A stretch of DNA of 37,819 bases from an uncultured Candidatus Bathyarchaeia archaeon (GCA_964346135.1 CAYFTS010000056.1:1-37819); one strand, 5' to 3'. Shown: positions 1-30,979, counted from the stretch's first letter. Translations and numbers: made by a program. Notes: generated from the letters alone by a model not told the origin.

Positions 1-861
1 TTTAACATTAGTGATTTTTATGTCGTTAGTGTATCTAACCGTTATGCTAAGTGTGTAGGTGTCATTGTTCGCCGTGTCGTCGGTAACTGTCAGCGTCACC
101 TGATGAGCTTCAGACACCATGTATTGATGAGTTACGATTTCACCCGTTCCTGTTGTTCCATCGCCGAAATCCCATTCGTAGCTGACAATTGTTCCATCTT
201 GGTCGTAACTTGTGGAGGCATTGAAAGTCACTGTCTCATTTATTTTTGGGCTGTTCGGAGAATAGGTGAAGTGTGCTACAGGAGGAAATTCTAGGTTGGT
301 GAAGAAACCGTTTACTGGAGTGAAAGGAATATTCTTTGGAACTTGACCTCCTCCAAAAAAAGCCATCTCTATTAGTTTGGTGCCAGTCAATTTTTGGTCT
401 TCATAAGGACGGCCATTTTTGAGTACAATCGTGTTGTTGATGTTCAAGTAACTTTCACCCGTTCCGAGAACCTTAAACTCTACAGTAGCAAGGGTTCCAG
501 ATCCATCTACTCCACTGTATTGGCCTTTCGTTGCCCACATGAACATCACCCAACCTTCCTCTACAAGAGGGGGGACAGTAGTTGTTCCTTCGGGTTGTTC
601 CTTGAGGATTTCGCCTTGGATCACGTTGACATATTCCAAGATGTTGGGGTCAAAGCTCATGTTAACTTGATAAGAATACAGATTGATGACATTTTTAACT
701 TCTACGTCTACAGTGAAGGTTTCACCAGGCATTGCTCTGCTTATCTCAGGTTCTACGAAGACTATAGTATTAGTGGCAGAGGATATCATTCCAACATTCA
801 TCAACGCTGTTGGAACAATAACAAGCATAAATAACAAAAACAAACTCTTCTCCCTTCTCAT
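1..861 (-). CDS. Secreted cohesin-domain plus PKD-domain protein. N-terminal 287 aa are visible; the 3' end runs off the left edge of the window.
   Basis: Absent from the supplied ORF track because it is open to base 1. Reverse-strand ATG at 859-861 is preceded by GGTGG (SD-like) and an AT-rich box. My translation is MRREKSLFLLFMLVIVPTALMNVG... (signal peptide). It continues with a cohesin-like module IVFVEPEISRAMPGETFTVDVEVKNVINLYSYQVNMSFDPNILEYVNV...GTLATVEFKVLG (about nt 367-765). A classic PKD module follows: VTFNASTSYDQDGTIVSYEWDFGDGTTG...VTLTVTDD (about nt 37-282). The plus-strand track ORFs 103-294 and 394-834 lie antisense to it and look spurious. Confidence 0.75.
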   Translation of the reverse strand, partial: MRREKSLFLLFMLVIVPTALMNVGMISSATNTIVFVEPEISRAMPGETFTVDVEVKNVINLYSYQVNMSFDPNILEYVNVIQGEILKEQPEGTTTVPPLVEEGWVMFMWATKGQYSGVDGSGTLATVEFKVLGTGESYLNINNTIVLKNGRPYEDQKLTGTKLIEMAFFGGGQVPKNIPFTPVNGFFTNLEFPPVAHFTYSPNSPKINETVTFNASTSYDQDGTIVSYEWDFGDGTTGTGEIVTHQYMVSEAHQVTLTVTDDTANNDTYTLSITVRYTNDIKITNVK

Positions 862-1008
862 CACACTGACCACCCAATCAAATTTGAAGTATTAAATACG
901 TTCTCACCAAATCATTTAAAGTTATCTGCTTTTCTCATTGATTCCACTTTGACGCTTTCCCACAGCAATTTGCGTGAGGATACATGCATGTACACAACTC
1001 TTGAAGAG

Positions 1009-2709
1009 TTAGGTAGCACCATAATTCATACAAACTATCAAGACATCTTGCATCTCCACAATACCATCCCTATTCAAGTCAGCGGCTTGATCGTATTGCG
1101 GTTGCCACCAGAAGTATCCATAGGACAAACTGAGCCTAGCTAAATCAAGAGCATCAACAATTCCATCCTCGTTCACGTCTCCTGCCAACGAAGTTCTGTA
1201 GTAAATATCCCAGTTACCGTCCGGCTGATCTGCTCTATTCGACGTCCACACCACCCAAACCTTCGTATCGCACGTTTGAATTGCAAAAGGCCAAGTATCC
1301 TCTGCATTATCTGTGGTAAACTGAACGCTTTCAGACCATGTGACGCCATTGTCATTTGAAGTCTTGAAGTAGATATCACCCGTAGCTGTCTGTGAAAGTT
1401 CGTCTGACCCCCAAAACACCCATATTGTTCCATCCAAAGCTTGAAGAATCGAAGGCGAAGAATCACTTTTGGTACTATTGGTCAGTCTCTTGTCAATTGA
1501 CCAGGATAATCCATCATATTTTTTGTAAAAAATTTCATCGTCTCCAGTTCTGTTAGAAGACCAAACCACCCAGAATTCACCATCTTGAGTCTGAATGATT
1601 GAAGGACCATTGTCCTTATTTGTGTCATTAGTGACTTGTTTTTCGTCGGACCAGGAAGATCCAAAATCAGAAGATGCTTTGTAGAATATGTCATTATTGC
1701 CGTTTCTGTTTGAAGCCCATAAAACGTAGATAGTTCCATTAGCGGCTTGGAAGATTGAAGGGTCTAAATCTTCAACCTCATTATCAGTTAGTGCGATGTC
1801 GTTGGACCATGAAGTTGCATAGTCATGAGAGACTTTGTAATAAATCTCGTGGTCTTGTATTGTCTGTGTCACACCCGCCTCTTCGACGAAAGATGAAGAT
1901 AACTCGTGGCTAACACCGCGTGTTTTTTTGGAGTATGACACAACTTGATTGTTTTCTAATCTCTTCTTCACATCGAAAAGGGAAAGAGACTTTGTATAGG
2001 CAAGAGGAGATGACTCTGTGATTTCTAAATAAATGTTGACACTGCGGGTGATTTTTCCACTTTTCCCCATAACTAGAAAAGTATAGTTTCCAGGAGTCGC
2101 TGTTGCTTCAACTGAAACTGTCAGGATTGAAGTGACGCTGCCATTTGGGGTGGGCGTAACTTCTGTTGGATTTAGAGCGGTATTAACGCCTAAGGGAGCG
2201 CTGAGAACTCTCAAACTAACTGTTTCATTGAATCCGTTCAATGAGGTTACCGTGACTATTGAGTTCTTAGAGCTGTTTTGCGGTATTGTTAAGTATTGTG
2301 GGAACCCAGTCATGGAAAAGTCAGGCTCTGGAGGCGGAGGCTGAGGCGGTCTGTTTGATGCCCACGCAACGAATATTGTACCATTGTTCAATTGAACAAC
2401 CGATGGATTCGAATCGTCTCCTGAGGTATATATATCAGTAAGGTTGCCTTTATGAAACCACGTCGACCCATAATCATATGAGAGAGAATAGAAAAGCGAG
2501 ATATTTTCCAAGGCTTTCTCTGACCAGACGATCAAAATCGTTCCGTCTTCAAGCTGGGTGAGAGATGGAAAGCCATCAAAGAATGGAAAATCTGTTAGTC
2601 GATGTGCCTGAGTCGACCATGTAGCCGCCTTCACAGTTGTCACGGTCGTTGTGGCTACAATTAGAATTGGAAAAAGAATTAGAATAGTAGCCATCGATTT
2701 GCAATGCAT
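1009..2709 (-). CDS. Secreted BNR/Asp-box repeat (sialidase-like beta-propeller) protein with an inserted Ig-like module and a C-terminal dockerin
   Basis: N-terminal hydrophobic signal (MATILILFPILIVATTTVTTVKA). Repeated Asp-box motifs SxDxGxTW are present (SYDYGSTW, SHDYATSW, SSDFGSSW, SNDNGVTW). A Pro-rich linker (PPQPPPPEP) is followed by an Ig-like segment. The C-terminal 60 aa carry two EF-hand-like dockerin segments, DVNEDGIVDALD and DLNRDGIVEMQD (about nt 1012-1191). Confidence 0.8.
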   Translation of the reverse strand: MHCKSMATILILFPILIVATTTVTTVKAATWSTQAHRLTDFPFFDGFPSLTQLEDGTILIVWSEKALENISLFYSLSYDYGSTWFHKGNLTDIYTSGDDSNPSVVQLNNGTIFVAWASNRPPQPPPPEPDFSMTGFPQYLTIPQNSSKNSIVTVTSLNGFNETVSLRVLSAPLGVNTALNPTEVTPTPNGSVTSILTVSVEATATPGNYTFLVMGKSGKITRSVNIYLEITESSPLAYTKSLSLFDVKKRLENNQVVSYSKKTRGVSHELSSSFVEEAGVTQTIQDHEIYYKVSHDYATSWSNDIALTDNEVEDLDPSIFQAANGTIYVLWASNRNGNNDIFYKASSDFGSSWSDEKQVTNDTNKDNGPSIIQTQDGEFWVVWSSNRTGDDEIFYKKYDGLSWSIDKRLTNSTKSDSSPSILQALDGTIWVFWGSDELSQTATGDIYFKTSNDNGVTWSESVQFTTDNAEDTWPFAIQTCDTKVWVVWTSNRADQPDGNWDIYYRTSLAGDVNEDGIVDALDLARLSLSYGYFWWQPQYDQAADLNRDGIVEMQDVLIVCMNYGAT

Positions 2710-2793
2710 GTTGGGACACCGCGAGTATGAATCGTGTATTTGAGAGAGAACATAAAAAGGGGGAAGGAAATTGGTTTGTTTCTAGTTTTGCTT

Positions 2794-4833
2794 CTAGCTT
2801 CCAGTAACCCACCAAGTGTAGGTTCTGACCTTTTCCGCTTGGATCCATGGAGTTGTATGATATCCGTCTTCGTCAGTCCAGGTGTATCTGTACTCGCCAG
2901 TTAATGTAGTGATCCATTTGCCCGTATCATAGCTCTTCAGTGTCCAATAGGCGACTGGAAGTTCAAGGTTTTCTTCGGGTTGAATGACGAAGCTCTCTGG
3001 GAACACTGGGTTGAACTTTGAGAATTCCACCTTTACTCTTAAGGAGTCTACTCTCATGGGTCCACCAGTGAGACCTGGATCATAGTTGTATATCAGAACG
3101 GATAGGCTGTTGAGTCCTTCTTCCGTTAGAGTCGCTGGGATTCTCTCAGATACTGTTTCGTCGAGCCAACGCACGCTTCCCCAATCCCATGTTTCGGTTC
3201 CATATAATGAGCCGAGCCAGACAAACATGGCTGGGTCGATGCTATAGACGTCTATGTCCATACCCTCGTCGGCTCCGTTGGGATACTGGGTATAGCCTTC
3301 AAGAATTACATTGCCAATGAGTCGGTCGCCTAGCACGAGGTCCTCAAAGCCGTAAACCGAAGTCATGGCACCGTCGATAGAGCTTTCAGCGTAGTTGCCA
3401 TCAGGTGGGCCAAACAAGCTTGTTCCAGGATTGATCCAATCCCATTCTAGCCATGGATCATACTCGTTGACGTACAGGTATTCAAAGTCTATTGGACCGA
3501 AACCCGAGTATATCTGTCCGCTGTAGATCTGAAGTCTTTGACCGTCTTCTACACGGTACATGTCCCAATGAGTCCTTACTTCCAGTGGCACACTGGCTAG
3601 GTTCTTGATTTTTGTTCCGAAGTATTGTATATCGCCAACTGTCTTGGCACGCTTGCCTGTGCTTCCCATGATTAGCTCTGCGGTTGGTCCGTAGTATGCA
3701 CTATCGGCAGTTTGGTGAAGTAGGGCTGCCCCATTACTGTCGAGTAGATCTACATCAACCAGATTGATCGGCGAATTGCCCGCGCTCACAATTTTGAACT
3801 TGATTGTTGCCAATGTTCCATTTCCATTTGCTCCGACATTTGGCTTGAGGAAAGTTGGGAGTCGCGTGTATCCTATGTTAACCGTTCCTGTCAGGACGTC
3901 GATTGTCTTGACGAAATGGGTGTTGTAGCCGTCTTGATCCAAGAAGTCACCTTTGATGATTTCAGCGGCTATAATGGTCTTTGCGAAAGGTGCATAGTCC
4001 ACTTTGAAACCTACAGTCCACAGATCTGTGGCGTTGGCTACGTTTATATCGACGTAGAATTCGTCACTCCAATATGAGTAGTCTGCCGTAATCTCTGCAG
4101 AATCACTGGGTACATACAGGAAAGTTACCACGCCGGTCTTGTCGACGATTGTGTAGTCAACATATCTGGTTTGAGGAACACCGTCAACGTAGATGGTTTC
4201 GCTTTCGTAATCTAATGGGGGACTAGAGAGACTGAACTCCGCGATGTATGATGTATAATCTGCCGTGACTGTTGCAGTATCGGCTGGCAGATATAGGAAG
4301 GTTATCTCACCAGTCCAGAAGTCAATTGCATAATCCGTATCTCTCGTTTGAGGAACGCCGTCAACGTAGATGGTTTCGCTTTCAGGAATCACCGGAGTTT
4401 CAGCGAGGCTGAACTCTAGGTTACCGTATTTGTAGTCTGCGGTGATTACCGCGTCCTTGCGAGGAGCATTGTCAAACGTTATTGTGCCAGTCCAGTAATC
4501 AATGGTGTACTTGCCGGCATGCGCCACGTGACCAGCGATGTAGACAGTTTCAGTTGACTCACCCACTGGAGTGTTGGCGAGATAAAACACCGTGGTGTCA
4601 CCGTCCCCAACTCCAAGGGTTTCGTTCACAACTGTAGTCCACATTTCAACTCCGACAGCGTCACCCACAACTGGGTAATGAAACCTCGTGTCTAAGGTCT
4701 CAACCATGCTGGGGTCCACGTAGACTACTGCTTCTGTCCCTTGAGCGCTAACAACCGGTAGCGTAGCAGCAACCATCACTGCAATCCAAGAAAGCCATAA
4801 CAAGTTTTTGATTTTTCCTTTCATTCTATTCAC
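2794..4833 (-). CDS. Secreted cohesin-domain protein with three tandem ~59-aa repeats and a ~300-aa C-terminal region of unknown function
   Basis: Signal peptide MNRMKGKIKNLLWLSWIAVMVAATLPVVSAQG. Cohesin-like module FYVDINVANATDLWTVGFKVDYAP...GTLATIKFKIVSAGNSPINLVDVDLLDSNG (about nt 3709-4062), resembling the cohesin in the 1-861 ORF. It begins 9 nt downstream of the dockerin-bearing SBP gene, so co-transcription is likely. Confidence 0.7.
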   Translation of the reverse strand: MNRMKGKIKNLLWLSWIAVMVAATLPVVSAQGTEAVVYVDPSMVETLDTRFHYPVVGDAVGVEMWTTVVNETLGVGDGDTTVFYLANTPVGESTETVYIAGHVAHAGKYTIDYWTGTITFDNAPRKDAVITADYKYGNLEFSLAETPVIPESETIYVDGVPQTRDTDYAIDFWTGEITFLYLPADTATVTADYTSYIAEFSLSSPPLDYESETIYVDGVPQTRYVDYTIVDKTGVVTFLYVPSDSAEITADYSYWSDEFYVDINVANATDLWTVGFKVDYAPFAKTIIAAEIIKGDFLDQDGYNTHFVKTIDVLTGTVNIGYTRLPTFLKPNVGANGNGTLATIKFKIVSAGNSPINLVDVDLLDSNGAALLHQTADSAYYGPTAELIMGSTGKRAKTVGDIQYFGTKIKNLASVPLEVRTHWDMYRVEDGQRLQIYSGQIYSGFGPIDFEYLYVNEYDPWLEWDWINPGTSLFGPPDGNYAESSIDGAMTSVYGFEDLVLGDRLIGNVILEGYTQYPNGADEGMDIDVYSIDPAMFVWLGSLYGTETWDWGSVRWLDETVSERIPATLTEEGLNSLSVLIYNYDPGLTGGPMRVDSLRVKVEFSKFNPVFPESFVIQPEENLELPVAYWTLKSYDTGKWITTLTGEYRYTWTDEDGYHTTPWIQAEKVRTYTWWVTGS
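4075..4560 (-). repeat. Three in-frame tandem repeats (period 177 nt / 59 aa) inside the 2794-4833 CDS
   Basis: Protein repeats: ESTETVYIAGHVAHAGKYTIDYWTGTITFDNAPRKDAVITADY, ESETIYVDGVPQTRDTDYAIDFWTGEITFLYLPADTATVTADY and ESETIYVDGVPQTRYVDYTIVDKTGVVTFLYVPSDSAEITADY. At DNA level, gtttgaggaac[a/g]ccgtcaacgtagatggtttcgctttc occurs at 4169-4206 and 4346-4383, exactly 177 nt apart. Confidence 0.8.
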
Positions 4834-4842
4834 CTCATGTTC

Positions 4843-6915
4843 TTATGAGCCGTATTCCCTTGGTACACCCCAGTAGAAGCTCAGCAATGTAACGTCTGTT
4901 GCGTCAACGATGCCATCTTCGTTAACATCTGCTAGCGGGTTGTATCCTGCCTGACCTAAGCGTTTTCCGAAGCTTAGGCTCATCGCGCTAAGATCAGTGG
5001 CATCCATATCACCATCACTGTTAGTGTCGCCGATTTTGTGGAACATTTCCACTACCATTGAACCAACATCCGTCGTGTCAACGAAATAGTTATCATTGCG
5101 ACTGAAGTCTGCGACTCCTCCTGTCGTGTCATAGCCTCCGAACACGTACGGTCCTGTTCCAAACAGTTGAGTTGGTGTTGACACAGGGCCGGTGTTTGTG
5201 GTGTTTAGCCAAACTGTATATCCAAGAATTGTTTGTTGATCTGCGCCGTCCAGCCAACTCCACACTTGGGGTGGAAGCATTGGAGCAATTTCAGCGAAGT
5301 CATATAGGTTGAACCTGCTTGTCACGTAGGAGTACACCTCAAAGGCGGTGCTATTGATTACTTGCACATCGGCGATGTTTTCCCATCCTGCTCGGTACCT
5401 TGGTATCTGATTGTTTCGCATGAACTCCAAAGCAAATTCGGCGTCGTCGGGTGTGTATAGATTTCCATCTTGCCAGTAGACGTCTGTTCTCAAGTTGAAG
5501 GTTACCTTCATGCCGTTTGTGATGTTAACTTGAGAGCCCGCGGTGACATCGTGGAACCTATCTTCACTGTCAAGAGTGATCGTCATGTTGAGAGGTCCCT
5601 CTAATTTCCAACCTGAAGCAATCCAAGGTAGGTCTTCATGGGTGTACGGGTTTATTGTTATCAATTCATCAAGAACCATGTCGATGATATTCCACTCGTA
5701 AACCGTGCTTGCCCATGTGGGGTTCATTGAATCAGGTTCCAAGTTGAGGCAGAAGATTATCCTGTCATCTCCTGTTCTAGGACGCAGGCCGTCTGGTGTA
5801 GTCCATTCCATGTTCATTAGGGTCCATGGAAGGTTTTCCCAGGGGTCTGAGCCGAAGCCAGGTGAGTTTATGATGCCTCCAAGATCTGGGTCGAAGGCGT
5901 TGAAGTATATCCTTGAGTACATTTGCATGTATGGAAAAGCCCATGGGTTGGATGCGTTGTACAACCATGCTTGAGCCGCATAGGCGGCTTCCACCTGCTC
6001 CCTTTGGTCGAGACCGAACTTCACTATTTCAGTGAGCTCATCAAGTACAGGGTCGTGGATGCCAACGGGGTTGTAGCCATCAGGGATGTCTTGGCTTGAG
6101 TGGGTCATGTCATATAGGTGATCGGGGAACCGGTTAAGGCTCCAGAATATCATGTACATGTCGAAGTCGTGATTAGTGAAGACATCGGTGGTGTACGCGT
6201 TGAAGTCTCTTGGTTGATGAATTATGTTGTTGAGTCCGCATCTATTCCACTCTTCAACTATTCTAGCACCGTGATCATGGGAGGTAGGTGCAGTTTCAGA
6301 GGTTGGCGTCCACAAATACATGGTTGGCAACGGGTTGTCCGATGGATCTGTCCAATAAGCGCTTAGGTCCCCATATCCGCTGCCATGGTAAGTGTAGCCT
6401 GCGCCTTTCAAAACCCCGAACACGCTAGGCGTGCCTGGCGGATCGCTGGCATCACCAGGATTGAACGGATACTGTGGGACATCAGGGTTCACCCAGCCAC
6501 CTTGAGCTGGAGGAACTAGAGATTGAACAGGTGTCACCGTGTATTGATAGATTTGAGCAATTATTTGGTCTTGCGCGTATCCGTGGAAGAGAGCGCGTCT
6601 GAAGTTCACATCATTAAGCACAGGTTTCCTCAAGTTGAAACCGACGTGCCCCATGTGAAAACCAGCGGCGTCTGTAACAGTGAAGCCTAGATTAACCAAC
6701 TGTTCAATGTCTGAGGTCCTTATGAGGTTAGTAAGGATGTCGATATCATGATTCCTCATCGCCAATAGCTGAGCATCAGGTTGTGTGACGAGATACTCAC
6801 GCCAATTGGCTGCGCTCGGACCAGCTGCACTGACGCTCGTACTGCTCATAGCAACGAAGAGAAGCAATGTATGCAGCGAAATCAATGCTATCTTAAATGT
6901 TGTTTTTGATTTCAA
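4843..6915 (-). CDS. ABC transporter substrate-binding protein, family 5 (peptide/oligosaccharide/nickel type), with a C-terminal dockerin. Segment order appears circularly permuted.
   Basis: Family-5 SBP motifs are present: MKVTFNLRTDVYWQDGN (family signature region), LFGTGPYVF...RNDNYF, GFNLRKPVLNDVNFRRALFHGYAQDQII and VPPAQGGW. There is a signal peptide without a lipobox Cys. The TTG start at 6913-6915 has GGAG upstream; the first ATG would delete the signal peptide. The C-terminal dockerin has DTNSDGDMDATD and DVNEDGIVDATD (about nt 4858-5034). The gene is divergent from the permease/ATPase genes of the same transporter. Confidence 0.85.
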   Translation of the reverse strand: MKSKTTFKIALISLHTLLLFVAMSSTSVSAAGPSAANWREYLVTQPDAQLLAMRNHDIDILTNLIRTSDIEQLVNLGFTVTDAAGFHMGHVGFNLRKPVLNDVNFRRALFHGYAQDQIIAQIYQYTVTPVQSLVPPAQGGWVNPDVPQYPFNPGDASDPPGTPSVFGVLKGAGYTYHGSGYGDLSAYWTDPSDNPLPTMYLWTPTSETAPTSHDHGARIVEEWNRCGLNNIIHQPRDFNAYTTDVFTNHDFDMYMIFWSLNRFPDHLYDMTHSSQDIPDGYNPVGIHDPVLDELTEIVKFGLDQREQVEAAYAAQAWLYNASNPWAFPYMQMYSRIYFNAFDPDLGGIINSPGFGSDPWENLPWTLMNMEWTTPDGLRPRTGDDRIIFCLNLEPDSMNPTWASTVYEWNIIDMVLDELITINPYTHEDLPWIASGWKLEGPLNMTITLDSEDRFHDVTAGSQVNITNGMKVTFNLRTDVYWQDGNLYTPDDAEFALEFMRNNQIPRYRAGWENIADVQVINSTAFEVYSYVTSRFNLYDFAEIAPMLPPQVWSWLDGADQQTILGYTVWLNTTNTGPVSTPTQLFGTGPYVFGGYDTTGGVADFSRNDNYFVDTTDVGSMVVEMFHKIGDTNSDGDMDATDLSAMSLSFGKRLGQAGYNPLADVNEDGIVDATDVTLLSFYWGVPREYGS

Positions 6916-7050
6916 GATTCTTTCTTCTCCTTTCTTTTACAGCACTAATAGTTAGCTGAGTCTGGATATTAAAAGGTTTTTTGAAATAATCTTATAGAAA
7001 ATACTTCTAATGATAATAGATACATTTAAATTAGTTTCAGAAAAGTTTAT

Positions 7051-8085
7051 GTGAAGAAGAAATGTCCAGCCGTATGCGCAGGAAGTGCTACGGTGAGAAA
7101 ATACCTATTGAAACGTATCATTATAGCGCTGCTGGTCTTATGGGTAGTCGCTACACTAAACTTCGTCATATTTCAGATTTTGTCACCAATAAGTCCAGAA
7201 AAGACGATTTTGGATCCTCAATTCACACCCGAGGTAAGAGCGGCGCTAAGAGAACTATACGGCCTTAACGAACCTATACTTACAAGATATTTCTACTATC
7301 TCAGAAACATGTTCACATGGGACTTCGGTTTCTCCTTTCAGAGTCTGCGTCCAATATCAGCTGAAATGGGATGGCGGCTAGGTAACACTGTACTGCTTCT
7401 CGGTTCGGCATTGATTTTGACAATCGCGGTGGGCATTCCCCTGGGGATACTAGCTGCCTCGAGGAGAGGATCTAAACTGGATGTTGCGGCGATTGGCGCT
7501 GGATTGTTCACATGGGGAGTTCCAATTTTCTTCATTGAACTGTTGTTCTTAATCTTCTTTGCATTGGGTCTTCGAGAAGTGTTTGGTTTCCAAGTTTTCC
7601 CTTTGTCACACATCTACAGCCCATCTCCTCCAACAAATCCGATTCTTTTCATAGCTGATGTTGCATGGCATCTATCTCTCCCTCTTATAACGTTGACAGT
7701 TGCATCGTTTGGTTTCTGGGCGCTATACACTAGAAATATCTTGCTGGAGAGCCTTACACAGGATTTCGTGATGACAGCTCGTGCTAAGGGGCTCAGCGAG
7801 AGAACTGTGTTGTATGGACACGCCTTCAGAAGCACGCTTCCTCCCGTTGTTACAATGGTCACGCTAGCTGTCCCGGGAATAGTGACTGGAGCCATGATAA
7901 CTGAATGGATATTTCAGCTACCCGGAATTGGCCGTTGGTACTTGGATGGGCTGTTGGCTGGGGACTACCCAGTGGTTCAATCCGTGCTTTTTATCTATGC
8001 TGTCCTGACGATCGCGGCCAATCTTATTGCCGACCTTTTGTATGGAGTGTTGGATCCGCGTATACGTGTAGGTGAAAGAAGGTAG
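7051..8085 (+). CDS. ABC transporter permease, OppB/DppB type
   Basis: Typical N-terminus (RKYLLKRIIIALLVLWVVATLNFVIFQ), six hydrophobic segments, an EAA-loop region (FVMTARAKGLSERTVLYGHAFR) and the C-terminal DLLYGVLDPRIR. The real start may be the in-frame GTG at 7093 (VRKYLLKR...). Confidence 0.9.
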   Translation: MKKKCPAVCAGSATVRKYLLKRIIIALLVLWVVATLNFVIFQILSPISPEKTILDPQFTPEVRAALRELYGLNEPILTRYFYYLRNMFTWDFGFSFQSLRPISAEMGWRLGNTVLLLGSALILTIAVGIPLGILAASRRGSKLDVAAIGAGLFTWGVPIFFIELLFLIFFALGLREVFGFQVFPLSHIYSPSPPTNPILFIADVAWHLSLPLITLTVASFGFWALYTRNILLESLTQDFVMTARAKGLSERTVLYGHAFRSTLPPVVTMVTLAVPGIVTGAMITEWIFQLPGIGRWYLDGLLAGDYPVVQSVLFIYAVLTIAANLIADLLYGVLDPRIRVGERR

Positions 8086-9535
8086 GGAGGCAAAAGTTGT
8101 GTCACCTCTAATCTCCGAAGAAAGAAGGATAATGTGGGCAAAAAGGATTAAGGGTTTCTGGCAAGAATTTAGAAGGAAAAAGATTGGTGTAGTAGGCCTT
8201 TTCCTCTTGGCCTTGTTTGTAATAATGGCTGTTTTTGCGCCTTGGCTAACACCGTACCAACCTTTGGGTTCTGAGCGCGTAGCCACAGGGTTTGCGATGC
8301 CTCAATGGGTTAAAATCTTTCCTGGACTTCAAGACCTTCCGTCTACGCATAGCATGTCGCTTTATTGGGAGAAAGAGGAAGCGTCTGAATTCATAAAAGC
8401 ATGGGGACACAATGTTGTAGTACAATTCGAACCGGGAACGACAGAAACCGTGTATGTTGAGCTCGGCGCCAAAATCTCCTATCCGGAAGATTCCCCGCCA
8501 GACACGTTCTATATCACCTTCACTTGGGGTGCGGAACAAATCAAAGACATGGAGTACTTACTCAAACTGATCGTGGTTAATCCAAAGGGTGAATCTTACC
8601 TCCTATGGCTTCCACAAGGTTGGCAAACGAAAAGTAAGGGTGCGAGTGTTTATATTGACTCACATAATCCTCTCCTGATGGATAGATTAGGCCTCAAACG
8701 CGGCGAAGATAATCTAGCGAACATTGTCTTCTCAGAAAAAGGTGAATACAATTTCACTCTGCAGGTGGCGTTCAAGCCGCAGACAGAAAACGCAGAGGCC
8801 AAGATTACTTTCCAAGATACCACTCTCGTCACATTGGGAGGAGTACATGGCATTCTGGGTACCGATAACGAAGGAGTAGACATCTGGGCGCAGCTGGTGT
8901 ATGGAGCTAGAATCTCTTTAACGATAGGATTGCTGGCGGCTATTCTCGAAACGATCATAGGCATCACCGTGGGAGTTTTTGCAGGATACTTAGGCGGTCC
9001 TGTCGACGAAATTTTAATGCGAATAGTAGACATACTTCTTTCTTTACCCCTTCTGCCCTTACTGTTGGCTCTTGTAGCTTTGTTCGGAGCGAACGTGATG
9101 TACATAGTTCTCTTCGTGGCAATATTTGGCTGGCAAAGCTTATCAAGGATCGTCAGATCTCATGTTCTCTCTCTACGGGAGACCTCTTTTATCGAGTGTG
9201 CTCGAGCAGCTGGTGGCAGTAGGTTTTACATAATACTAAAACACATGATACCCAACGTTCTTCCCATTGCCTTTGCATCCATGGTGCTTAGTGTACCATC
9301 TGCGATCTTGTTTGAGGCCACGTTGAGTTTCTTGGGGTTTGGCGACCCCAGCGCACCTACTTGGGGAAGAATGCTTTCCTACGCCTTTGGAGCAGGTGGA
9401 TTCACCCATTTGCCAATAGCTTGGTGGTGGGTATTACCTCCCGGACTAGCAATAACTTTCCTCTGTTTGGCCTTCGTGTTTATGGGGCACGCAGTTGACG
9501 AGATTGTAAACCCAAGGTTGAGGAGGCGGCGGTGA
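8072..9535 (+). CDS. ABC transporter permease, OppC/DppC type, with a large extracytoplasmic insert after TM1
   Basis: Canonical OppC motifs: GILGTDNEGVDIWAQLVYGARISL, an EAA-like FIECARAAGGSRFYIILKHMIPN, and the C-terminal DEIVNPRLRRR. It overlaps the upstream permease by 14 nt. An alternative start is ATG 8132 (MWAKRIKGFW), which has an SD-like GAAGGA. Confidence 0.9.
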   Translation: MKEGREAKVVSPLISEERRIMWAKRIKGFWQEFRRKKIGVVGLFLLALFVIMAVFAPWLTPYQPLGSERVATGFAMPQWVKIFPGLQDLPSTHSMSLYWEKEEASEFIKAWGHNVVVQFEPGTTETVYVELGAKISYPEDSPPDTFYITFTWGAEQIKDMEYLLKLIVVNPKGESYLLWLPQGWQTKSKGASVYIDSHNPLLMDRLGLKRGEDNLANIVFSEKGEYNFTLQVAFKPQTENAEAKITFQDTTLVTLGGVHGILGTDNEGVDIWAQLVYGARISLTIGLLAAILETIIGITVGVFAGYLGGPVDEILMRIVDILLSLPLLPLLLALVALFGANVMYIVLFVAIFGWQSLSRIVRSHVLSLRETSFIECARAAGGSRFYIILKHMIPNVLPIAFASMVLSVPSAILFEATLSFLGFGDPSAPTWGRMLSYAFGAGGFTHLPIAWWWVLPPGLAITFLCLAFVFMGHAVDEIVNPRLRRRR

Positions 9536-10507
9536 ATGGAAAGGTTGTTAACTGTCGAGAACCTAAAGATGTACTATGAGACCATGAGAGGATACGTCAA
9601 GGCAGTGGACGATGTAAGCTTCACTGTGAATAAGGAGGAGGCTTTAGGACTCGCTGGCGAGTCCGGATGTGGAAAAACGAGTGCCGCATTAGCAATTTTG
9701 AGACTATTGCCTTGGAATGGTAAGATAATTGAAGGAAACGTCACATTAGCTGGTGAAAACCTCATAAAAATGAGCGACAAAGAACTTCGACAGAAGATTA
9801 GGTGGAAAAGGATTTCTATGGTATTTCAAGGAGCAATGAACGCCCTTCATCCAACTTACACAATTGGGCGTCAAATAGCGGAGCCGATACTTAAACATGA
9901 AGACGTTAGCAAGCGTGAAGCAATGGAACGAGCTGGGAAGCTTCTTGAACTTGTGGGGATTGAACCCGAAAAAACTGTTCGGTACCCATATGAACTCAGT
10001 GGCGGTATGAAACAGCGTGCCATTATAGCGATGGCTCTAGCCTGTAACCCCGACCTGATTATCGCAGATGAGCCGACTACTGCGTTAGATGTCATTGTGC
10101 AGGCTCAAGTGTTGAAGGTCATGGAAGACTTAAAGCGTAAGCTGAAACTTTCCTGGATACTAATATCACATGATCTCTCGATAATCGCTGAAACGTGTAC
10201 AAAGGTTGCGATTATGTACGCTGGAAAAATTGTGGAATACGGAGACGTAGTGCACATATTCAAAGAACGCTTGCATCCGTACACAGAAAAGTTAGTAACT
10301 GCTTTTCCAAGCGTGTTGGGACCCAAGAGAGAGCTTTCTTCTATACACGGCTTCCCGCCGGACCTTCTTGAACCCCCAGCTGGATGCAGGTTTAATCCGA
10401 GATGCCCACATGTTATGGAAATTTGCAGAACTGAAGAACCTTTACTTACCGATGTTGGCAAGAAACATCATGTGGCATGCCATCTGCACCACGGTGAAAA
10501 ATCTTGA
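9536..10507 (+). CDS. ABC transporter ATP-binding protein, OppD/DppD type
   Basis: Walker A GESGCGKT, ABC signature LSGGMKQR, Walker B LIIADEPTTALD, and H-loop ISHD. The C-terminal oligopeptide-transporter domain has a Cys/His cluster (GCRFNPRCPHVMEICR...HHVACHLH). Confidence 0.95.
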   Translation: MERLLTVENLKMYYETMRGYVKAVDDVSFTVNKEEALGLAGESGCGKTSAALAILRLLPWNGKIIEGNVTLAGENLIKMSDKELRQKIRWKRISMVFQGAMNALHPTYTIGRQIAEPILKHEDVSKREAMERAGKLLELVGIEPEKTVRYPYELSGGMKQRAIIAMALACNPDLIIADEPTTALDVIVQAQVLKVMEDLKRKLKLSWILISHDLSIIAETCTKVAIMYAGKIVEYGDVVHIFKERLHPYTEKLVTAFPSVLGPKRELSSIHGFPPDLLEPPAGCRFNPRCPHVMEICRTEEPLLTDVGKKHHVACHLHHGEKS

Positions 10508-11520
10508 AAGAAGATGTAACTATAGAAGTTCGAAACTTGGTGAAGTATTTCCCAGTGAAATTAGGGTTCTTCAAGACGCTAAGATCGAAAGAAATGTTGT
10601 ATGTTCACGCTGTTGATGACGTGAGCTTCAAAATCAAAACTGGCGAAATATTTGGGCTTGTAGGCGAAAGCGGATGCGGAAAAACTACAACTGGAAGATG
10701 TTTGCTTCGACTGATCGAACCTACCCAAGGTGAAGTGATCTTCAAAGGCGTAGACATAATATCCCTCTCCCTAGAACATGACGTAAGAAGACTACGACGG
10801 AAAATGCAAGTAATATTTCAGGACCCATATGAATCTCTAAATCCGAGAATGAACGTTCTGGACATAATAGCGGAACCATTGCGAATTCAAAAAGTCACTA
10901 AAAGTGAGAGGGAGGTCAATGAGAAAGTAGCCGAAGCCTTGGAGGATTTGGATTTAGTTCCGCCTGATGAGTTTCTGTATAGGGTTCCCCACGAACTTAG
11001 CGGTGGCCAGAGACAGAGAATTGCCATAGCCCGAGCCTTTGTGCTCAAACCTGAGTTTCTAGTTGCAGATGAACCTGTATCGATGCTTGACGCGTCCATC
11101 AGAAGCGAAGTTCTAAAACTTCTCTTGGATCTGCAACAAAGATTTCACACTTCGATTCTCTATATAACACATGACATAGCTTTAGCTCGGCATTTGTGCG
11201 ACCGCGTCGCGGTCATGTATTTGGGTAAGATTGTAGAGAAAGGGGTTACGGAGGAACTAATTCAAAAACCGATGCACCCATACACTAAGGCATTAATAGC
11301 CGCTGTGCCAGTTCCCGACCCAACAGCAAGGCGGATTAGTGTTGTGATCGGGGGAGAAGTTCCAAGCGCCATTAGCCCACCCCAAGGATGCCGATTCAAT
11401 ACGCGGTGTCCTCACGTCATGGGGATTTGCCGAAAGAAAGAACCGCAACTTACTGAACTCGACCAGCGCAGACATGTAGCATGCCACTTGCATACTAGCT
11501 CAAAGGTTTCAAAAACATGA
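10504..11520 (+). CDS. ABC transporter ATP-binding protein, OppF/DppF type
   Basis: Walker A GESGCGKTT, signature LSGGQRQR, Walker B FLVADEPVSMLD, and H-loop ITHD. The C-terminal domain has GCRFNTRCPHVMGICR...RHVACHLH. A 4-nt overlap with the upstream ATPase gene indicates translational coupling. Confidence 0.95.
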   Translation: MKEDVTIEVRNLVKYFPVKLGFFKTLRSKEMLYVHAVDDVSFKIKTGEIFGLVGESGCGKTTTGRCLLRLIEPTQGEVIFKGVDIISLSLEHDVRRLRRKMQVIFQDPYESLNPRMNVLDIIAEPLRIQKVTKSEREVNEKVAEALEDLDLVPPDEFLYRVPHELSGGQRQRIAIARAFVLKPEFLVADEPVSMLDASIRSEVLKLLLDLQQRFHTSILYITHDIALARHLCDRVAVMYLGKIVEKGVTEELIQKPMHPYTKALIAAVPVPDPTARRISVVIGGEVPSAISPPQGCRFNTRCPHVMGICRKKEPQLTELDQRRHVACHLHTSSKVSKT

Positions 11521-11565: not shown

Positions 11566-12057
11566 ATGGCTCTAAATGCAAGACGAATCATAATAATAGC
11601 TTTCATATTAACTACTGTAGTTTTCAATGTCATCACCGTTTACACTGCAGGAGTTTACTTCCGAGCATATGCTGGAGTGAGGAATTTTAACGTTAGCATC
11701 CAGGAGTTCAAGGCCAACATCTTCAATGCATCTTACGCATCAACAGAGACCATTTTGACCATCCGTAATCCTTCACAATGCATGTTTGAGGCATTGTACA
11801 TCGTAGAACGACTAGAACTCGAAGGTCAATTCATATCAGTTGATGGTATGTATATGTGGACGAAGCCTCTGCAGATACCTCCACAGTCGAACATCACTGT
11901 GACACTCGAGCAGAATATTCACTATGATCGCATACAATACGTGCGATCTCGACTAGAGGAATATTGGCTTATGGAGATCCGAATGTTGTTGAATGGGCCT
12001 CTCGTCGGAACCTTCATGTACAACTCGTTGTTCACGACTAAGATAACCAATATTTAA
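11566..12057 (+). CDS. Hypothetical single-pass membrane protein
   Basis: ORF with an N-terminal TM segment (RRIIIIAFILTTVVFNVITVYTAGVYF) followed by a probably beta-rich ectodomain carrying several NxS/T sequons. I recognised no family with confidence; a LEA14/WHy-like fold is only a guess. Confidence 0.45.
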   Translation: MALNARRIIIIAFILTTVVFNVITVYTAGVYFRAYAGVRNFNVSIQEFKANIFNASYASTETILTIRNPSQCMFEALYIVERLELEGQFISVDGMYMWTKPLQIPPQSNITVTLEQNIHYDRIQYVRSRLEEYWLMEIRMLLNGPLVGTFMYNSLFTTKITNI

Positions 12058-12071
12058 ATAGAAAGCATCAT

Positions 12072-12953
12072 ATGAGCTCAAAGGAATGTTTGGCCAACAT
12101 GGGGGAGTTCCACGTGAACTCTAACATTAAAAAAAGGAAATACCCTCATAGTACTAGCAGATTCTACCTCAGCGCTCTGACCGCTCTGTTGTCCGTGATT
12201 TTGGCACTTCTACTATTGCAGGATTCCATCTTGTCGCTATATTACTTCGTCTCCACGTTGCTTATGACAATAATCACCTTCATATTGAGGACCCGCCTAT
12301 TCTCCGCTGGAACACCAAAGCACTCAGAAAAGGAATTGTTTGAAACTGAAAAAAGCGATTCAACATTTGGAATGTTGATACTCATGCTTTTTGCGCTACT
12401 TGCATTTGTGGTTATTCCAATTCTCCTGGTAAGGGTGTTAGATCCGTATACTTGGTTTATACTCATAATCAGCCTCACGTCAGGAGTTAGCATCGCGGAG
12501 GTACTCTTCTATCTCAACATAAAGAGATCTGGTTTAAAAGTAATGAGAAGATTAAAGATGCGCCGTTCGATGTGGGTTCTATTTTTGTTAGGTGCTTCAA
12601 GTCTTAACTACGCCAGCGTCTCCTTGCTAGTCATCGTTTGGAGGCTCGATATCTTCTATTATTTGCCTATGGTTTTCATCATCAGTTGCATGATCGGCGC
12701 CCTGGTGGTAGACATCACAAAGTCTATTATTTACACATATACCTGTATGATCATAGGTTACATGATAACAATCGCAACATTTTTGCTCCCCTACGTAATA
12801 TTTGCGGAGAGCGTTGAAAGAATTAACCTAGCCATCATCGCAGTTCTCAATACCATAGTAAAGGTTTTCTTCATTAGTGCAATCGTATACTTCTTAGGCG
12901 CGATAGTGGGATGCTTCTTGGGCGAGAAGTCACTGGAACAGACTCAGATATAA
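12072..12953 (+). CDS. Hypothetical polytopic membrane protein
   Basis: A 293-aa ORF with at least 6 long hydrophobic segments. No recognisable catalytic motif. The start codon is uncertain. Confidence 0.45.
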   Translation: MSSKECLANMGEFHVNSNIKKRKYPHSTSRFYLSALTALLSVILALLLLQDSILSLYYFVSTLLMTIITFILRTRLFSAGTPKHSEKELFETEKSDSTFGMLILMLFALLAFVVIPILLVRVLDPYTWFILIISLTSGVSIAEVLFYLNIKRSGLKVMRRLKMRRSMWVLFLLGASSLNYASVSLLVIVWRLDIFYYLPMVFIISCMIGALVVDITKSIIYTYTCMIIGYMITIATFLLPYVIFAESVERINLAIIAVLNTIVKVFFISAIVYFLGAIVGCFLGEKSLEQTQI

Positions 12954-29933: not shown

Positions 29934-29965
29934 CGTTTTCTATTGAAGTTGTAGCCAGTGACCAG

Positions 29966-30979
29966 CTAACCGCTCTTGAAAACGCTTTCAATAATTCTCC
30001 TCACATCACCCTGCACTTCTGGGCTATCACTGGTCAAAGCAACTATTGTTTCCTCAGCAGCTGCTAAAGGGGCAAGTCCATCGTTAATAAGAACTGCCCA
30101 GTGCATTAAATCTCCAAGTGAAGGTCCATAAGGTAAGTCCCCTGCCTTATACTGCCTCCGCATCTCTGCTCCAACCCTAAGAACTTTAAAAGCCGTGTCT
30201 TCATCCACACCTTTTCTAACTATCAGCTGCGCTTCTTCGGGAAGAATCCTGTCTCCAACACTTGGATAGTCAAAATTTACCCATACGCTCATTCGTCTTC
30301 TGAAAGCTGCGTTCATGGGTTTGGTTCCCGCAAACTCTGCTGAAAAGGGGTTCATAGCAATTATTACGTATCCAAACTTATGGCGCTTGACGATTTCGCC
30401 ATCCTTCTCCGTAATCACCATGTGGCCCCTCGTGTCAAGTACTGGATTCAGTCTAGTGGCAACATCCTGCTTCATCATGTTTGCTTCATCCAAGTACATT
30501 AAACCTCCATTTCTAAGCCAAGAAACCAATGGTCCATCGATCCAGTTTTCTTTTCCAAGTCCAATGTACCGTCCTATAAGGTCATAAGACGATGTTTGAA
30601 GACCACAGTTAACCTCATACATAGGCAATCCCGTAAGTTCAGCAACGAGATAAGCGATATGCGTCTTTCCTGTTCCAGATGGTCCAATTAATGCGCATTG
30701 TTTAAAATAGTAAAGAGCTCTTATTATCTGCTTAACGTAGTCATGATCGCCTTGAATGTATGGTGGAGTGTTAGCTGGAATTAAACCTCTAACCTTATCT
30801 GGGAATTCATAATTTCGATGGAGATTATATTTTTCAAGGTCGACGTTGTATAAGCCTTCGAGAGGCGATTTTGCCGCAGATTGTTTCCTTGTTAATCGAA
30901 TACTGATTCTAGCGCCGTTTCGTCTAATGTGGGTCACTTCGTCGTCTGTCGTGGTTGTCCCTCGGGTTTGGAGCGACAA
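29966..30979 (-). CDS. MoxR-class AAA+ ATPase (AAA_5; CbbQ/NorQ/GvpN-like)
   Basis: Walker A GPSGTGKTH, Walker B LMYLDEANMM, then VIIAMNP and an arginine-finger region AAFRRRM, typical of the CbbQ/NorQ subgroup. The TTG start at 30977-30979 is preceded by GAGG. The next ATG lies beyond Walker A, so a non-ATG start is required. Confidence 0.9.
   Translation of the reverse strand: MSLQTRGTTTTDDEVTHIRRNGARISIRLTRKQSAAKSPLEGLYNVDLEKYNLHRNYEFPDKVRGLIPANTPPYIQGDHDYVKQIIRALYYFKQCALIGPSGTGKTHIAYLVAELTGLPMYEVNCGLQTSSYDLIGRYIGLGKENWIDGPLVSWLRNGGLMYLDEANMMKQDVATRLNPVLDTRGHMVITEKDGEIVKRHKFGYVIIAMNPFSAEFAGTKPMNAAFRRRMSVWVNFDYPSVGDRILPEEAQLIVRKGVDEDTAFKVLRVGAEMRRQYKAGDLPYGPSLGDLMHWAVLINDGLAPLAAAEETIVALTSDSPEVQGDVRRIIESVFKSG

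Follow-up and report, generated by a model that had tools for sequence, protein, structure and literature searches.

The stretch of 37,819 nucleotides analysed here (the window), from an uncultured Candidatus Bathyarchaeia archaeon (GCA_964346135.1), starts with a gene cluster whose products probably assemble at the cell surface as the receptor complex of an Opp/Dpp-type ABC importer, with cohesin-dockerin modules as connectors. The reading of these modules as tethers is based throughout on sequence, predicted structure and synteny. The four minus-strand ORFs reported in an earlier note on this DNA were all found (Table 1), separated in turn by gaps of 9, 84 and 147 nt. TATA-like motifs are present in the latter two gaps; co-transcription of the four genes is putative. 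All four proteins possess a signal-peptide-like hydrophobic N-terminus. The archaeal host proposed in the earlier note is borne out by the genes for LonB, TrmB and ApgM within the window, and by the genome loci carrying relatives of the solute-binding protein (SBP), which all belong to Ca. Bathyarchaeota/Bathyarchaeia MAGs (7/7).

Table 1. Features of the cluster and of the adjoining importer genes, with positions in the window
Feature	Position	Strand	Size or residues	Remarks
Gene 1, SBP with C-terminal dockerin	4843-6915	-	690 aa	
Dockerin module, gene 1	4879-5031	-	residues 629-679	DTNSDGDMDATD ... DVNEDGIVDATD
Gene 2 (P2), cohesin protein	2794-4833	-	679 aa	
DUF2460-like repeats, P2	4096-4638	-	residues ~66-246	three repeats of ~55 aa, phage distal-tail-protein-like
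Cohesin core, P2	3664-4095	-	residues ~247-390	
P2C, C-terminal domain of P2	2797-3651	-	285 aa	all-beta
Gene 3, BNR propeller with C-terminal dockerin	1009-2709	-	566 aa	
Dockerin module, gene 3	1033-1185	-	residues 509-559	DVNEDGIVDALD ... DLNRDGIVEMQD
Gene 4, cohesin + PKD	1-861	-	287 aa	truncated at the window start, which is the contig end
Cohesin, gene 4	418-735	-	residues 43-148	
PKD (PKD_4), gene 4	37-285	-		
Divergent intergenic region	6916-7050		135 nt	AT-rich, between SBP gene and permease genes
OppB-like permease	7051-8085	+		Pfam
OppC-like permease	8072-9535	+		Pfam; ~230-aa extracytoplasmic insertion
ATPase	9536-10507	+		Pfam; oligo_HPY tail
ATPase	10504-11520	+		Pfam; oligo_HPY tail

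A first line of evidence is gene order. In related Bathyarchaeia contigs, oppFDCB is repeatedly found divergent from a series of genes for SBP-dockerin, cohesin+P2C, BNR-propeller-dockerin, cohesin-TM, cohesin-TM, and cohesin-dockerin. By this synteny, the four genes in the window open a locus conserved in Bathyarchaeia, predicted to be a fixed six-gene cassette beside the permease genes. Loci L002-L004 and L012 form one ~74%-identical lineage with the same gene order as the window, loci L006 and L010 keep the order at an SBP identity of only 37-38%, and gene order is conserved in further metagenomic loci (L013-L016 and L020-L024). Of the 10 metagenomic loci with enough upstream DNA, 9 have the SBP-dockerin gene directly upstream of the cohesin-P2C gene, the gaps being no longer than ~18 nt, and a BNR(-dockerin) gene follows directly downstream of the latter gene in nine loci. 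There are exceptions (L011), with SBP-dockerin genes that lack both downstream cohesin genes and nearby Opp genes. Judged by its recurrence in independent contigs, the arrangement is far beyond chance. In addition, the SBP, BNR, cohesin, and P2C components are tied together by natural (Rosetta-stone) fusions, namely BNR-SBP-dockerin (P0047/P0048), SBP-dockerin-P2C (P0169/P0135), and SBP-dockerin-cohesin-P2C-CARDB-dockerin (P0196).

The location of the cluster next to an ABC importer, as described before, is likewise shared by related loci. The SBP-dockerin gene has the OppBCDF tetrad as its divergent neighbour both in the window and in all distinct related loci with enough upstream DNA (10/10), and the OppBCDF-type genes (7051-11520) would encode the cognate importer of this SBP. 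The intergenic region in between presumably contains both divergent promoters; a TATA-like TTTAAA occurs ~22-27 nt upstream of position 7051.

Gene 1 encodes a predicted secreted solute-binding protein of family 5 or cluster C (Opp/Dpp/Nik-type), matching SBP_bac_5 (PF00496; 1.1e-34; 120.6 bits versus a cut-off of 32.4; Pfam). Judged by eye, its signal peptide (~residues 1-30; MKSKTTFKIALISLHTLLLFVAMSSTSVSA followed by AG) has a Sec class I look with an AxA site, and no class III (pilin-like) signal peptide was seen on the protein. Gene 1 possesses neither a lipobox nor a C-terminal TM helix. Similarly, within the SBP family (~100 clusters; 99 homologues counted, 32-89% identity), a lipobox was found in 0 of 99 members, and a C-terminal hydrophobic anchor or TM helix in none of the members examined. 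The canonical N-to-C order of the lobes was not found either, as the SBP, like its family, is circularly permuted relative to DppA/OppA. This is seen from residues 77-156, 247-329, 385-471, and 470-612 of the SBP, which align with DppA 253-331, AppA 408-487, 4qfk 30-118, and 7z8e 118-246, respectively. In addition, the canonical SBP P0123 matches the family HMM with its residues 39-226 at positions 388-614 and its residues 219-515 at positions 24-365.

The C-terminal dockerins announced for genes 1 and 3, with the Ca-loop segments quoted for them, are both present and score 31.3 and 37.5 bits, respectively, with Dockerin_1 (PF00404; cut-off of 22.9). Both display the features taken to define a (type I-like) dockerin, namely two tandem ~22-residue segments, each combining a 12-residue, EF-hand-like Ca loop of the pattern D-x-[DN]-x-[DN]-G-x-x-[DE]-x-x-D with a helix after it; the duplicated loops (Table 1) lie 33 residues apart in each protein. 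The solved dockerin 2y3n_B matches the dockerin of gene 1 at 4.7e-9 and that of gene 3 at 4.9e-7 (1.6e-12 with the family profile). The gene 1 dockerin is preceded by a conserved EMFHxIGD helix and followed by a WGxxxEY tail, and dockerin-type Ca loops occur within the last 110 residues of 89 of the 99 SBP homologues. In many family members, however, the first of the two segments has a degenerate sequence (for example DVDRDGWIWAGD), so classical cohesin binding may not apply to all SBP dockerins. The dockerins of genes 1 and 3 belong to different subtypes, both conserved, which suggests distinct partners. Another dockerin protein encoded in the window is a multihaem cytochrome (24625-27270).

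Cohesins had been claimed for genes 2 and 4. For gene 4 this is confirmed by the Pfam profile (58.8 bits versus a cut-off of 24.1), whereas for P2 the claim fails by profile (PF00963; 18.3 bits) and holds by predicted fold. P2 is a secreted, anchor-less protein, consisting of a signal peptide, a cohesin split by three DUF2460-like repeats, and the C-terminal P2C domain; translation may actually begin at an ATG at position 4824, as it does in the homologues. Precomputed PF00963 matches exist for some of these homologues (P0006, P0014, and P0015). On the AF2 model (residues ~257-390; pLDDT ~77-93, mostly 82-93), the region has the jelly-roll beta-sandwich fold of cohesins. Foldseek aligned this model with the Archaeoglobus fulgidus cohesin 2xdh (TM 0.70, rmsd 2.7 A, prob 1.00) and with more than 30 solved cohesin chains, many of them of type I/II (prob 1.00; target-normalised TM 0.57-0.70), with rmsd values of 2.6-4.1 A for the single-domain matches. 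Furthermore, the region can be aligned to the cohesin of gene 4, which is a bona fide one, and P2 matches a cohesin HMM made for this analysis at 5.6e-69, this HMM having been built with the family of P2 included. In the sequence pattern that the earlier note ascribed to both cohesins, the F-D-P element reads VDYAP in P2, and the first cohesin strand of P2 (VVYVDPS, residues 36-42) is parted from the remainder (from residue ~257 onwards). The DUF2460-like repeats (67.4 bits over three stretches in Pfam; TIGR02217 matched as well) form an insert in the beta1-beta2 loop of the cohesin, which, by alignment, is absent from the short homologues P0008-P0014. The P2C domain is a confidently modelled beta-sandwich (AF2; pLDDT 90.7, pTM 0.82), for which no close solved relative was found by Foldseek in the PDB (best E of 3e-3, with weak CBM/jelly-roll-like matches). 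It is represented by 89 clusters in 1.84e9 proteins. Among the P2C-domain proteins with a length of 400 aa or more, 54 of 62 contain a cohesin, and the partner domains of P2C elsewhere are almost only cohesin, dockerin, or the SBP family of the window.

Membrane anchoring can be read from the orthologues of gene 4, which, like gene 5, is complete only in orthologous contigs. The 287 aa of gene 4 present in the window, with a PKD_4 match of 72 bits, are 79% identical over their entire length to a 424-aa protein of L002, ending in ...LGILTIFAIVVVVAGVLGAGVFLYLRRRNASPPS. Beyond the PKD domain, gene 4 orthologues possess a CARDB domain and, at the C-terminus, a TM anchor, an architecture repeated in L006, L010, L013, and L023. 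The orthologues of both gene 4 and the next gene consist of a signal peptide, an N-terminal cohesin, a PKD/CARDB stalk, and a terminal TM helix followed by a basic C-terminal tail; in L002, Cohesin scores are 56.9 bits for the gene 4 orthologue and 33.3 bits for the gene-6 protein. The anchor of gene 4 itself would lie past the contig end, as judged from the 79%-identical protein; the window appears to span the whole contig, as no contig on record with its SBP is longer than 37819 bp. The statement that neither fully visible cohesin protein is anchored is correct for P2, the only one that is fully visible, and does not extend to gene 4.

The product of gene 3 is a secreted beta-propeller of the BNR/Asp-box type, interrupted by an Ig-like domain and ending in a dockerin. 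It contains four strict Asp-boxes (S-x-D-x-G-x-T-W) in very regular blades, and BNR_2 is matched weakly in precomputed results (53-55 bits in the orthologues); this agrees with the Asp-box repeats on a six-bladed propeller that are expected of GH33 sialidases. The description of this propeller as sialidase-like rests on the Asp-boxes only, and a sialidase character is not established. Indeed, the GH43/sialidase matches are weak (28.6 bits, below the cut-off of 32.2; PDB sialidases at E ~5e-3), the family profile reaches solved sialidases weakly and through Asp-box segments only (best E of 5.8e-5, 0 significant stretches), and the conserved columns of the family are mostly repeat-framework residues. 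An unlikely alternative, which would draw on these weak matches, is a cellulosome-like degradative complex, in which dockerin enzymes, among them the BNR protein as a sialidase or glycosidase, are arranged on cohesin scaffolds and the SBP is merely a neighbour for product uptake. The cohesin-dockerin grammar is as in cellulosomes, and P2C weakly resembles CBM-type beta-sandwiches. However, profile searches of the six cluster genes revealed no glycoside hydrolase, lyase, esterase, or peptidase domain above threshold, and the earlier view that the cargo comprises an SBP and a BNR propeller instead of glycoside hydrolases agrees with the lack of a CAZyme catalytic domain above threshold at the locus. 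Moreover, regular blades are as in binding propellers. The three to four genes neighbouring the SBP and BNR dockerin genes carry one cohesin each, and no protein with more than one was found among the cohesin proteins of the window and the related loci, which argues against a scaffoldin. Finally, the presence of a dockerin on the SBP across its family indicates that the SBP is a component and not a bystander.

In the favoured receptor assembly, the SBP dockerin would act as a tether, plugged into a membrane-anchored cohesin stalk and keeping the receptor above its permease, as archaea have no outer membrane to hold a free binding protein. Docking of the SBP may be direct or may proceed through the adaptor-like cohesin-dockerin protein. 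The same assembly would also recruit the BNR propeller and the cohesin+P2C protein, which lacks an anchor; the probable task of these two is to bind or process a substrate of polymeric or oligomeric nature (peptide or glycan) and pass it to the SBP. The extracellular nutrient-capture assembly suggested earlier for this archaeon thus gains support from the profiles, the cohesin fold model, the type of cargo, and the adjacency of the importer. A counterpoint is that P2, whose gene shows the closest coupling to the SBP gene, has no anchor; if P2 is the partner of the SBP, tethering would need a further interaction. This close coupling, with a gap of 9 nt and an adjacency conserved elsewhere, would also fit a released scavenging complex, in which SBP-dockerin, BNR-dockerin, and P2 form a soluble or S-layer-associated particle for substrate capture at a distance from the membrane and the TM cohesins serve other dockerin proteins, such as the multihaem cytochrome. 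Fusions of the type SBP-dockerin-cohesin-P2C and other dockerin proteins in the genome, such as the one encoded at 24625-27270, are in line with such a particle. It is nevertheless quite improbable, as uptake by an ABC importer depends on an SBP located at the permease, the cluster includes two conserved genes for TM-anchored cohesins, and the extra terminal dockerin on the fusion protein P0196 implies further attachment. Very unlikely, lastly, is a set of envelope or adhesion proteins, in which the cohesin, PKD, and CARDB proteins are adhesins or S-layer accessories, the dockerin tails are Ca-binding stabilisers lacking a specific partner, and the link with transport is coincidental: PKD and CARDB are modules typically found in adhesion or in stalks, their counterparts in ANME archaea have been interpreted as adhesion-related (PMC5244752), and part of the SBP family has a degenerate first dockerin segment, but gene order and OppBCDF are conserved down to 37% SBP identity, fusions join the cluster components, and the dockerins exceed the Pfam cut-off and match dockerins of solved cohesin complexes.

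A more far-reaching form of the receptor assembly, which can be put forward only tentatively, is an archaeal 'utilisome', in which the permuted dockerin SBP, the BNR protein, and the cohesin-P2C protein are held in a defined stoichiometry on two anchored cohesin stalks, above a permease with a ~230-aa extracellular domain, coupling the capture or processing of polymeric detritus to import. In such a utilisome, the circular permutation of the SBP would have evolved to put the tether in a place that allows the plugged-in receptor to dock on the permease, and P2C would represent a previously undescribed substrate-binding domain.

The Sus-like utilisomes of Bacteroidota also comprise binding proteins at the surface, along with accessory propellers or enzymes, that are encoded with, and physically assembled on, a dedicated importer. 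These systems involve a TonB-dependent outer-membrane transporter and lipoprotein assembly, and are unrelated to the Bathyarchaeia locus in sequence, membrane architecture, and assembly chemistry. With the clostridial cellulosome, the locus shares the modules themselves, namely a dockerin with a duplicated 12-residue Ca loop plus helix and a cohesin consisting of a 9-stranded beta-sandwich, as well as their distribution, with the dockerin on the cargo and the cohesin on anchored proteins. In contrast, a multi-cohesin scaffoldin was not encountered in the Bathyarchaeia window and related loci, no GH, CE, or PL cargo occurs at the locus, the cargo being a transport receptor and a BNR propeller, and anchoring is by a C-terminal TM helix instead of SLH or sortase. 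The A. fulgidus cohesin mentioned above, among the closest structural matches of the P2 model, is a single-cohesin archaeal protein too; the A. fulgidus modules are isolated cases without a known cargo logic, whereas those described here are part of a conserved, transporter-linked candidate operon. A functional analogue is the bindosome of Sulfolobus, an archaeon without an outer membrane, in which SBPs of ABC transporters are assembled into surface complexes (PMC3047682). The bindosome makes use of class III signal peptides and a type-IV-pilus-like assembly ATPase, whereas the present locus possesses Sec-type-looking signal peptides, no Bas genes, and a cohesin-dockerin connector; no pilus-assembly gene, whether for the ATPase or for the membrane protein, was found in the window. 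The nearest precedent comes from ANME archaea, in which OppA/NikA- and TroA-type SBPs bear dockerins (Chadwick et al. 2022, PMC9012536), making the present idea less unprecedented than first thought. In these archaeal, non-cellulosomal cases too, the dockerin is part of an ABC importer's periplasmic-type receptor, the same genomes encode cohesin proteins, and the function proposed is surface organisation (PMC9012536); archaeal cohesin-dockerin pairs have been found to bind specifically (PMC9012536). That study was a genome-wide domain census of Methanosarcinales and ANME-1, without a defined locus, an anchored-cohesin partner, or a family-level analysis. The present case differs in its Bathyarchaeia host, fixed six-gene cassette, permuted SBP, single-cohesin proteins with a TM anchor, and new P2C domain, and points to a putative role for cellulosome-type connectors outside cellulose degradation.

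An ORF check reproduced exactly the four minus-strand ORFs that the earlier note had proposed as an operon of dockerin- and cohesin-bearing proteins beside an ABC importer, with intergenic gaps of 9, 84 and 147 nt (genes 1-2, 2-3 and 3-4, respectively) and a Sec-type signal-peptide-like N-terminal segment in all four proteins. The duplicated calcium-loop segments of the dockerins of the solute-binding protein (SBP; gene 1) and the BNR propeller (gene 3) were present and canonical, both dockerins scored above the Pfam cut-off (Dockerin_1, 22.9 bits), and both matched 2y3n_B, from a solved dockerin-cohesin complex (4.7e-9 and 4.9e-7, respectively). Similarly, the gene 4 cohesin exceeded its Pfam cut-off (Cohesin, 24.1 bits). 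The cohesin claimed for the gene 2 protein (P2) remained under this cut-off as a profile match, but held as a fold, its predicted structure matching solved cohesins (Foldseek). The dockerin matches, the canonical calcium loops and the cohesin-like P2 model thus confirm the observation. The archaeal origin was borne out as well, by genes coding for archaeal LonB, TrmB, an ApgM-type phosphoglycerate mutase and an MttB homologue; tRNA genes were not found in the window. Overall, the locus encodes a system that is real, conserved and interpretable.

Position and domain content of the dockerin/cohesin genes and of other features of the window
Feature	Position	Strand	Length	Domains and motifs
Gene 1 (SBP-dockerin)	4843-6915	-	690 aa	SBP_bac_5 (1.1e-34), Dockerin_1 (31.3 bits) (Pfam)
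Gene 2 (P2)	2794-4833	-	679 aa	three DUF2460-like repeats; Cohesin (18.3 bits, Pfam)
Gene 3 (BNR propeller-dockerin)	1009-2709	-	566 aa	Dockerin_1 (37.5 bits, Pfam)
Gene 4 (cohesin-PKD)	1-861	-	287 aa, open at window start	Cohesin (58.8 bits), PKD (Pfam)
Repeats in P2	4096-4638	-	three of ~55 aa	related to DUF2460/TIGR02217
OppC-like permease	8072-9535	+	487 aa	OppC_N (residues 27-64), BPD_transp_1 core (297-485)
Two small proteins	11566-12953	+	163 aa; 293 aa	N-terminal TM helix (163-aa protein)
MttB-superfamily methyltransferase	17732-19165	+	477 aa	349 bits
Haem-motif protein	24625-27270	-	881 aa	five CxxCH motifs (residues 55, 110, 142, 319, 381); weak MtrC/MtrF-like and CARDB matches (Pfam)
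AAA+ ATPase, then VWA-domain protein	28194-30979	-	337 aa; 579 aa	MoxR/CbbQ-type; VWA

P2 was aligned with its 14 close homologues, and its structure was predicted. Its cohesin region had a pLDDT of mostly 82-93, and Foldseek retrieved dozens of PDB cohesins at probability 1.00, the non-cellulosomal Archaeoglobus fulgidus cohesin 2xdh being superimposed with a TM score of 0.70 and an rmsd of 2.7 Å. The first cohesin strand (VVYVDPS) lies ~215 residues ahead of the remaining domain, with the DUF2460-like repeats, missing from shorter homologues, in the beta1-beta2 loop. These repeats, related to a phage or GTA distal tail protein, vary from 0 to 4 copies across homologues, and phage-sheath-domain proteins (P0016-P0018) carry similar ones. 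A search of the PDB with the P2 sequence gave noise, apart from a marginal match of the RcGTA distal tail protein to the repeats. The last 285 residues (P2C) were modelled as beta-sandwich modules with a pLDDT of 90.7 and a pTM of 0.82; Foldseek found nothing in the PDB below E = 1e-3 (best E = 3e-3). P2C is thus a confidently modelled domain without a close solved relative. Its weak resemblances concerned CBM/jelly-roll-type sandwiches, and a CBM-like assignment was not made on these. An exhaustive phmmer search of 1.84 billion representatives yielded only 89 P2C clusters.

The window seems to span its entire contig, since no contig on record for its SBP is longer than 37,819 bp, the length of the window itself; its continuation and the anchor of the gene 4 protein were read from orthologous contigs. 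The only other contig with gene 3 was a 3.4-kb Logan contig (L001), and for the 98%-identical protein P0001 no encoding contig was found. A 74% identical copy of the locus stems from a sample with contigs named SMTZ1. Contigs L002-L004 and L012, with a 74% identical P2, show the order oppF-oppD-oppC-oppB (divergent), SBP-dockerin, cohesin-P2C, BNR-dockerin, cohesin-PKD-CARDB-TM (424 aa), cohesin-PKD/CARDB...-TM (909 aa) and cohesin-dockerin (254 aa). The 424-aa protein is the orthologue of gene 4 (79% identity over all 287 residues), and its C-terminus (LGILTIFAIVVVVAGVLGAGVFLYLRRRNASPPS) consists of a TM helix and a basic tail, as does that of the 909-aa protein. Hence, the gene 4 anchor, for which the earlier note had suggested extending the contig, is present in the orthologues, as a C-terminal TM helix.

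Related loci were annotated with HMMs built from these locus sequences. The same gene order occurred in two Bathyarchaeota MAG contigs (L006 and L010), with an SBP identity of only 37-38%, and in metagenomic loci (L013-L016 and L020-L024). Where a metagenomic locus extended far enough upstream, the SBP-dockerin gene lay directly upstream of the cohesin-P2C gene in 9 of 10 cases (measured gaps, at most ~18 nt); a BNR(-dockerin) gene lay directly downstream in nine loci, followed by cohesin proteins with C-terminal TM helices wherever the contig extends that far. The SBP gene has the OppBCDF tetrad as its divergent neighbour, both in the window and, without exception, in the ten distinct related loci for which sufficient upstream DNA is available. 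Exceptions were the L017-L019 lineage, in which the P2-like gene is followed by a cohesin gene instead of a BNR gene, and L011, in which the SBP-dockerin gene has no downstream cohesin or Opp genes. The latter contig, from another Bathyarchaeota MAG, encodes at 2775-4993 a 548-aa cohesin protein whose C-terminus is exceptionally rich in Trp and Tyr (...WRPWWGWWWHWVYWRHWYWWSSYFPYDP); next comes a small dockerin protein, with this orphan SBP-dockerin gene ~5 kb downstream.

A search of 5.8 billion proteins retrieved 103 SBP relatives, nearly all full-length. At least one dockerin-type calcium loop was present in the last 110 residues of 89 of 99 homologues, mostly two; a hydrophobic C-terminal anchor was found in none of the homologues, and a lipobox in the first 45 residues in none of the 99. 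A dockerin thus belongs constitutively to this SBP family, as its only visible means of attachment. Furthermore, gene 1 encodes a naturally occurring circular permutant of the OppA/DppA (family 5) fold, with ~100 homologous clusters. The canonical C-terminal ~300 residues come first, followed by the canonical N-terminal ~190 residues and the dockerin. In alignments with solved DppA/AppA, its N-terminal half pairs with their C-terminal half and its second half with their N-terminal ~220 residues; residues 39-226 and 219-515 of a canonical SBP match positions 388-614 and 24-365 of the family HMM, respectively. All full-length family members share this swapped order. Among one genome per GTDB species, the SBP-family profile retrieved seven loci, all from Candidatus Bathyarchaeota/Bathyarchaeia MAGs; the archaeon of the window most probably belongs to the Bathyarchaeia. 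No report of natural circularly permuted SBPs was found in the literature searched, which is weak evidence of novelty.

The gene 3 propeller, into which an Ig-like domain is inserted, shows very regular blades and four strict Asp-boxes. A profile of ten BNR orthologues matched solved dockerins (1.6e-12) through its dockerin, and solved sialidases weakly and only through the Asp-box segments. Therefore, neither GH33 membership nor a catalytic role is established; of the sialidase-like propeller with dockerin described earlier, the Asp-box propeller and the dockerin stand, and the sialidase identity was not adopted.

A moderately probable explanation for the locus is that, through the SBP dockerin, the receptor of the importer is tied to a cohesin stalk anchored in the membrane. 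P2 and the BNR propeller would be part of this assembly at the surface, where they may bind or process substrate; the ligand could be a peptide or an oligosaccharide. Rosetta-stone fusions speak for a single complex in which the SBP, P2 and the BNR propeller act. Of the 62 P2C proteins with 400 aa or more, 54 show the cohesin-P2C architecture; the rest are fusions. P0196 is an SBP-dockerin-cohesin-P2C-CARDB-dockerin protein (internal dockerin and P2C by purpose-built HMMs, the other domains by Pfam), and P0169 and P0135 are SBP-dockerin-P2C proteins. Outside this P2C set, P0047 and P0048 are fusions of a BNR propeller with SBP-dockerin. The SBP dockerins (EMFHxxGD...WGxxKEYP) and the BNR dockerins (TSLAGD...YGAT/ET) form distinct, separately conserved subtypes, which suggests different cohesin partners. 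In a single locus (L010; n = 1), a second BNR-dockerin gene adjoins a second cohesin gene with a weak P2C-like match, a co-duplication hinting that the BNR dockerin may pair with the P2-type cohesin.

On the transporter side, the OppC-like permease contains, between its first TM helix and its core, a ~230-aa insertion predicted to be extracytoplasmic and beta-rich; the size of this permease is kept in all related loci (477-502 aa). The insertion had no match in Pfam or with a purpose-built cohesin HMM, and a cohesin carried by the permease itself was dropped accordingly. The SBP/P2 complex could dock on this insertion. The ATPase genes are closely followed by genes for two small function-unassigned proteins, perhaps members of the transporter cluster; in L002, a 163-aa ORF is found at the equivalent position (2761-3252).

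Elsewhere in the window, the 881-aa protein has an internal hydrophobic stretch (~residues 183-225) and, at its C-terminus, a dockerin-like segment in duplicate (GDLNGDGDVDWFDFGDFAQAYG...DWDGDVDWFDFGVFAANYG; 3e-9 with a purpose-built dockerin HMM, no Pfam call). Its dockerin subtype (DGDVDWFDFGDF) also ends the L002 cohesin-dockerin protein (18153-18917). The protein resembles a multihaem cytochrome tagged with a dockerin, here in a Bathyarchaeon, similar to those described in ANME. The MttB ORF is uninterrupted, so that it has no in-frame amber codon and represents a non-pyrrolysine member. The AAA+ ATPase and VWA-domain protein form a chaperone-like pair of a standard type and show no evident connection with the cohesin-dockerin locus.

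Bathyarchaeia are predicted to ferment peptides, and the locus bears on their nutrient acquisition. It offers three dockerins and four cohesins whose gene context is known, together with the prediction of an ABC-importer receptor tethered to a membrane-anchored cohesin. The long-standing question of what such modules are for can hereby be put to a simple binding assay, in a class of uncultured archaea that is ecologically dominant and has been described as predominant in cold, anoxic marine sediments (PMC9534799). In addition, protein-assembly engineering can use orthogonal archaeal cohesin-dockerin pairs as parts.

Membership of the cellulosomes was rejected, because the locus lacks both defining elements, a scaffoldin and CAZyme cargo. 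It is of an already known kind, namely the archaeal non-cellulosomal cohesin-dockerin systems and dockerin-tagged SBPs, and is not categorically new. Such archaeal modules have been catalogued for 25 years, their function still being unexplained (PMC9012536, PMC5244752), and archaeal cohesin-dockerin pairs have been shown to bind (PMC9012536). In ANME archaea, NikA/OppA- and TroA-type SBPs are common dockerin-bearing proteins, with their function left open (Chadwick et al., PMC9012536), and the cohesin/dockerin modules have been read as possible adhesion devices (Timmers et al., PMC5244752). The literature searched yielded no description of cohesin-dockerin systems in Bathyarchaeia, nor of a fixed cassette linked to a transporter, with single-cohesin stalks anchored by TM helices. 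Two further features that appear unreported are the P2C domain and the permuted SBP family. The nearest functional analogue is the Sulfolobus bindosome, which, unlike the locus, uses pilin-like signal peptides (PMC3047682). If the tethering holds true, it would give archaea a third means of retaining binding proteins at their surface, in addition to lipid/TM anchors and this bindosome.
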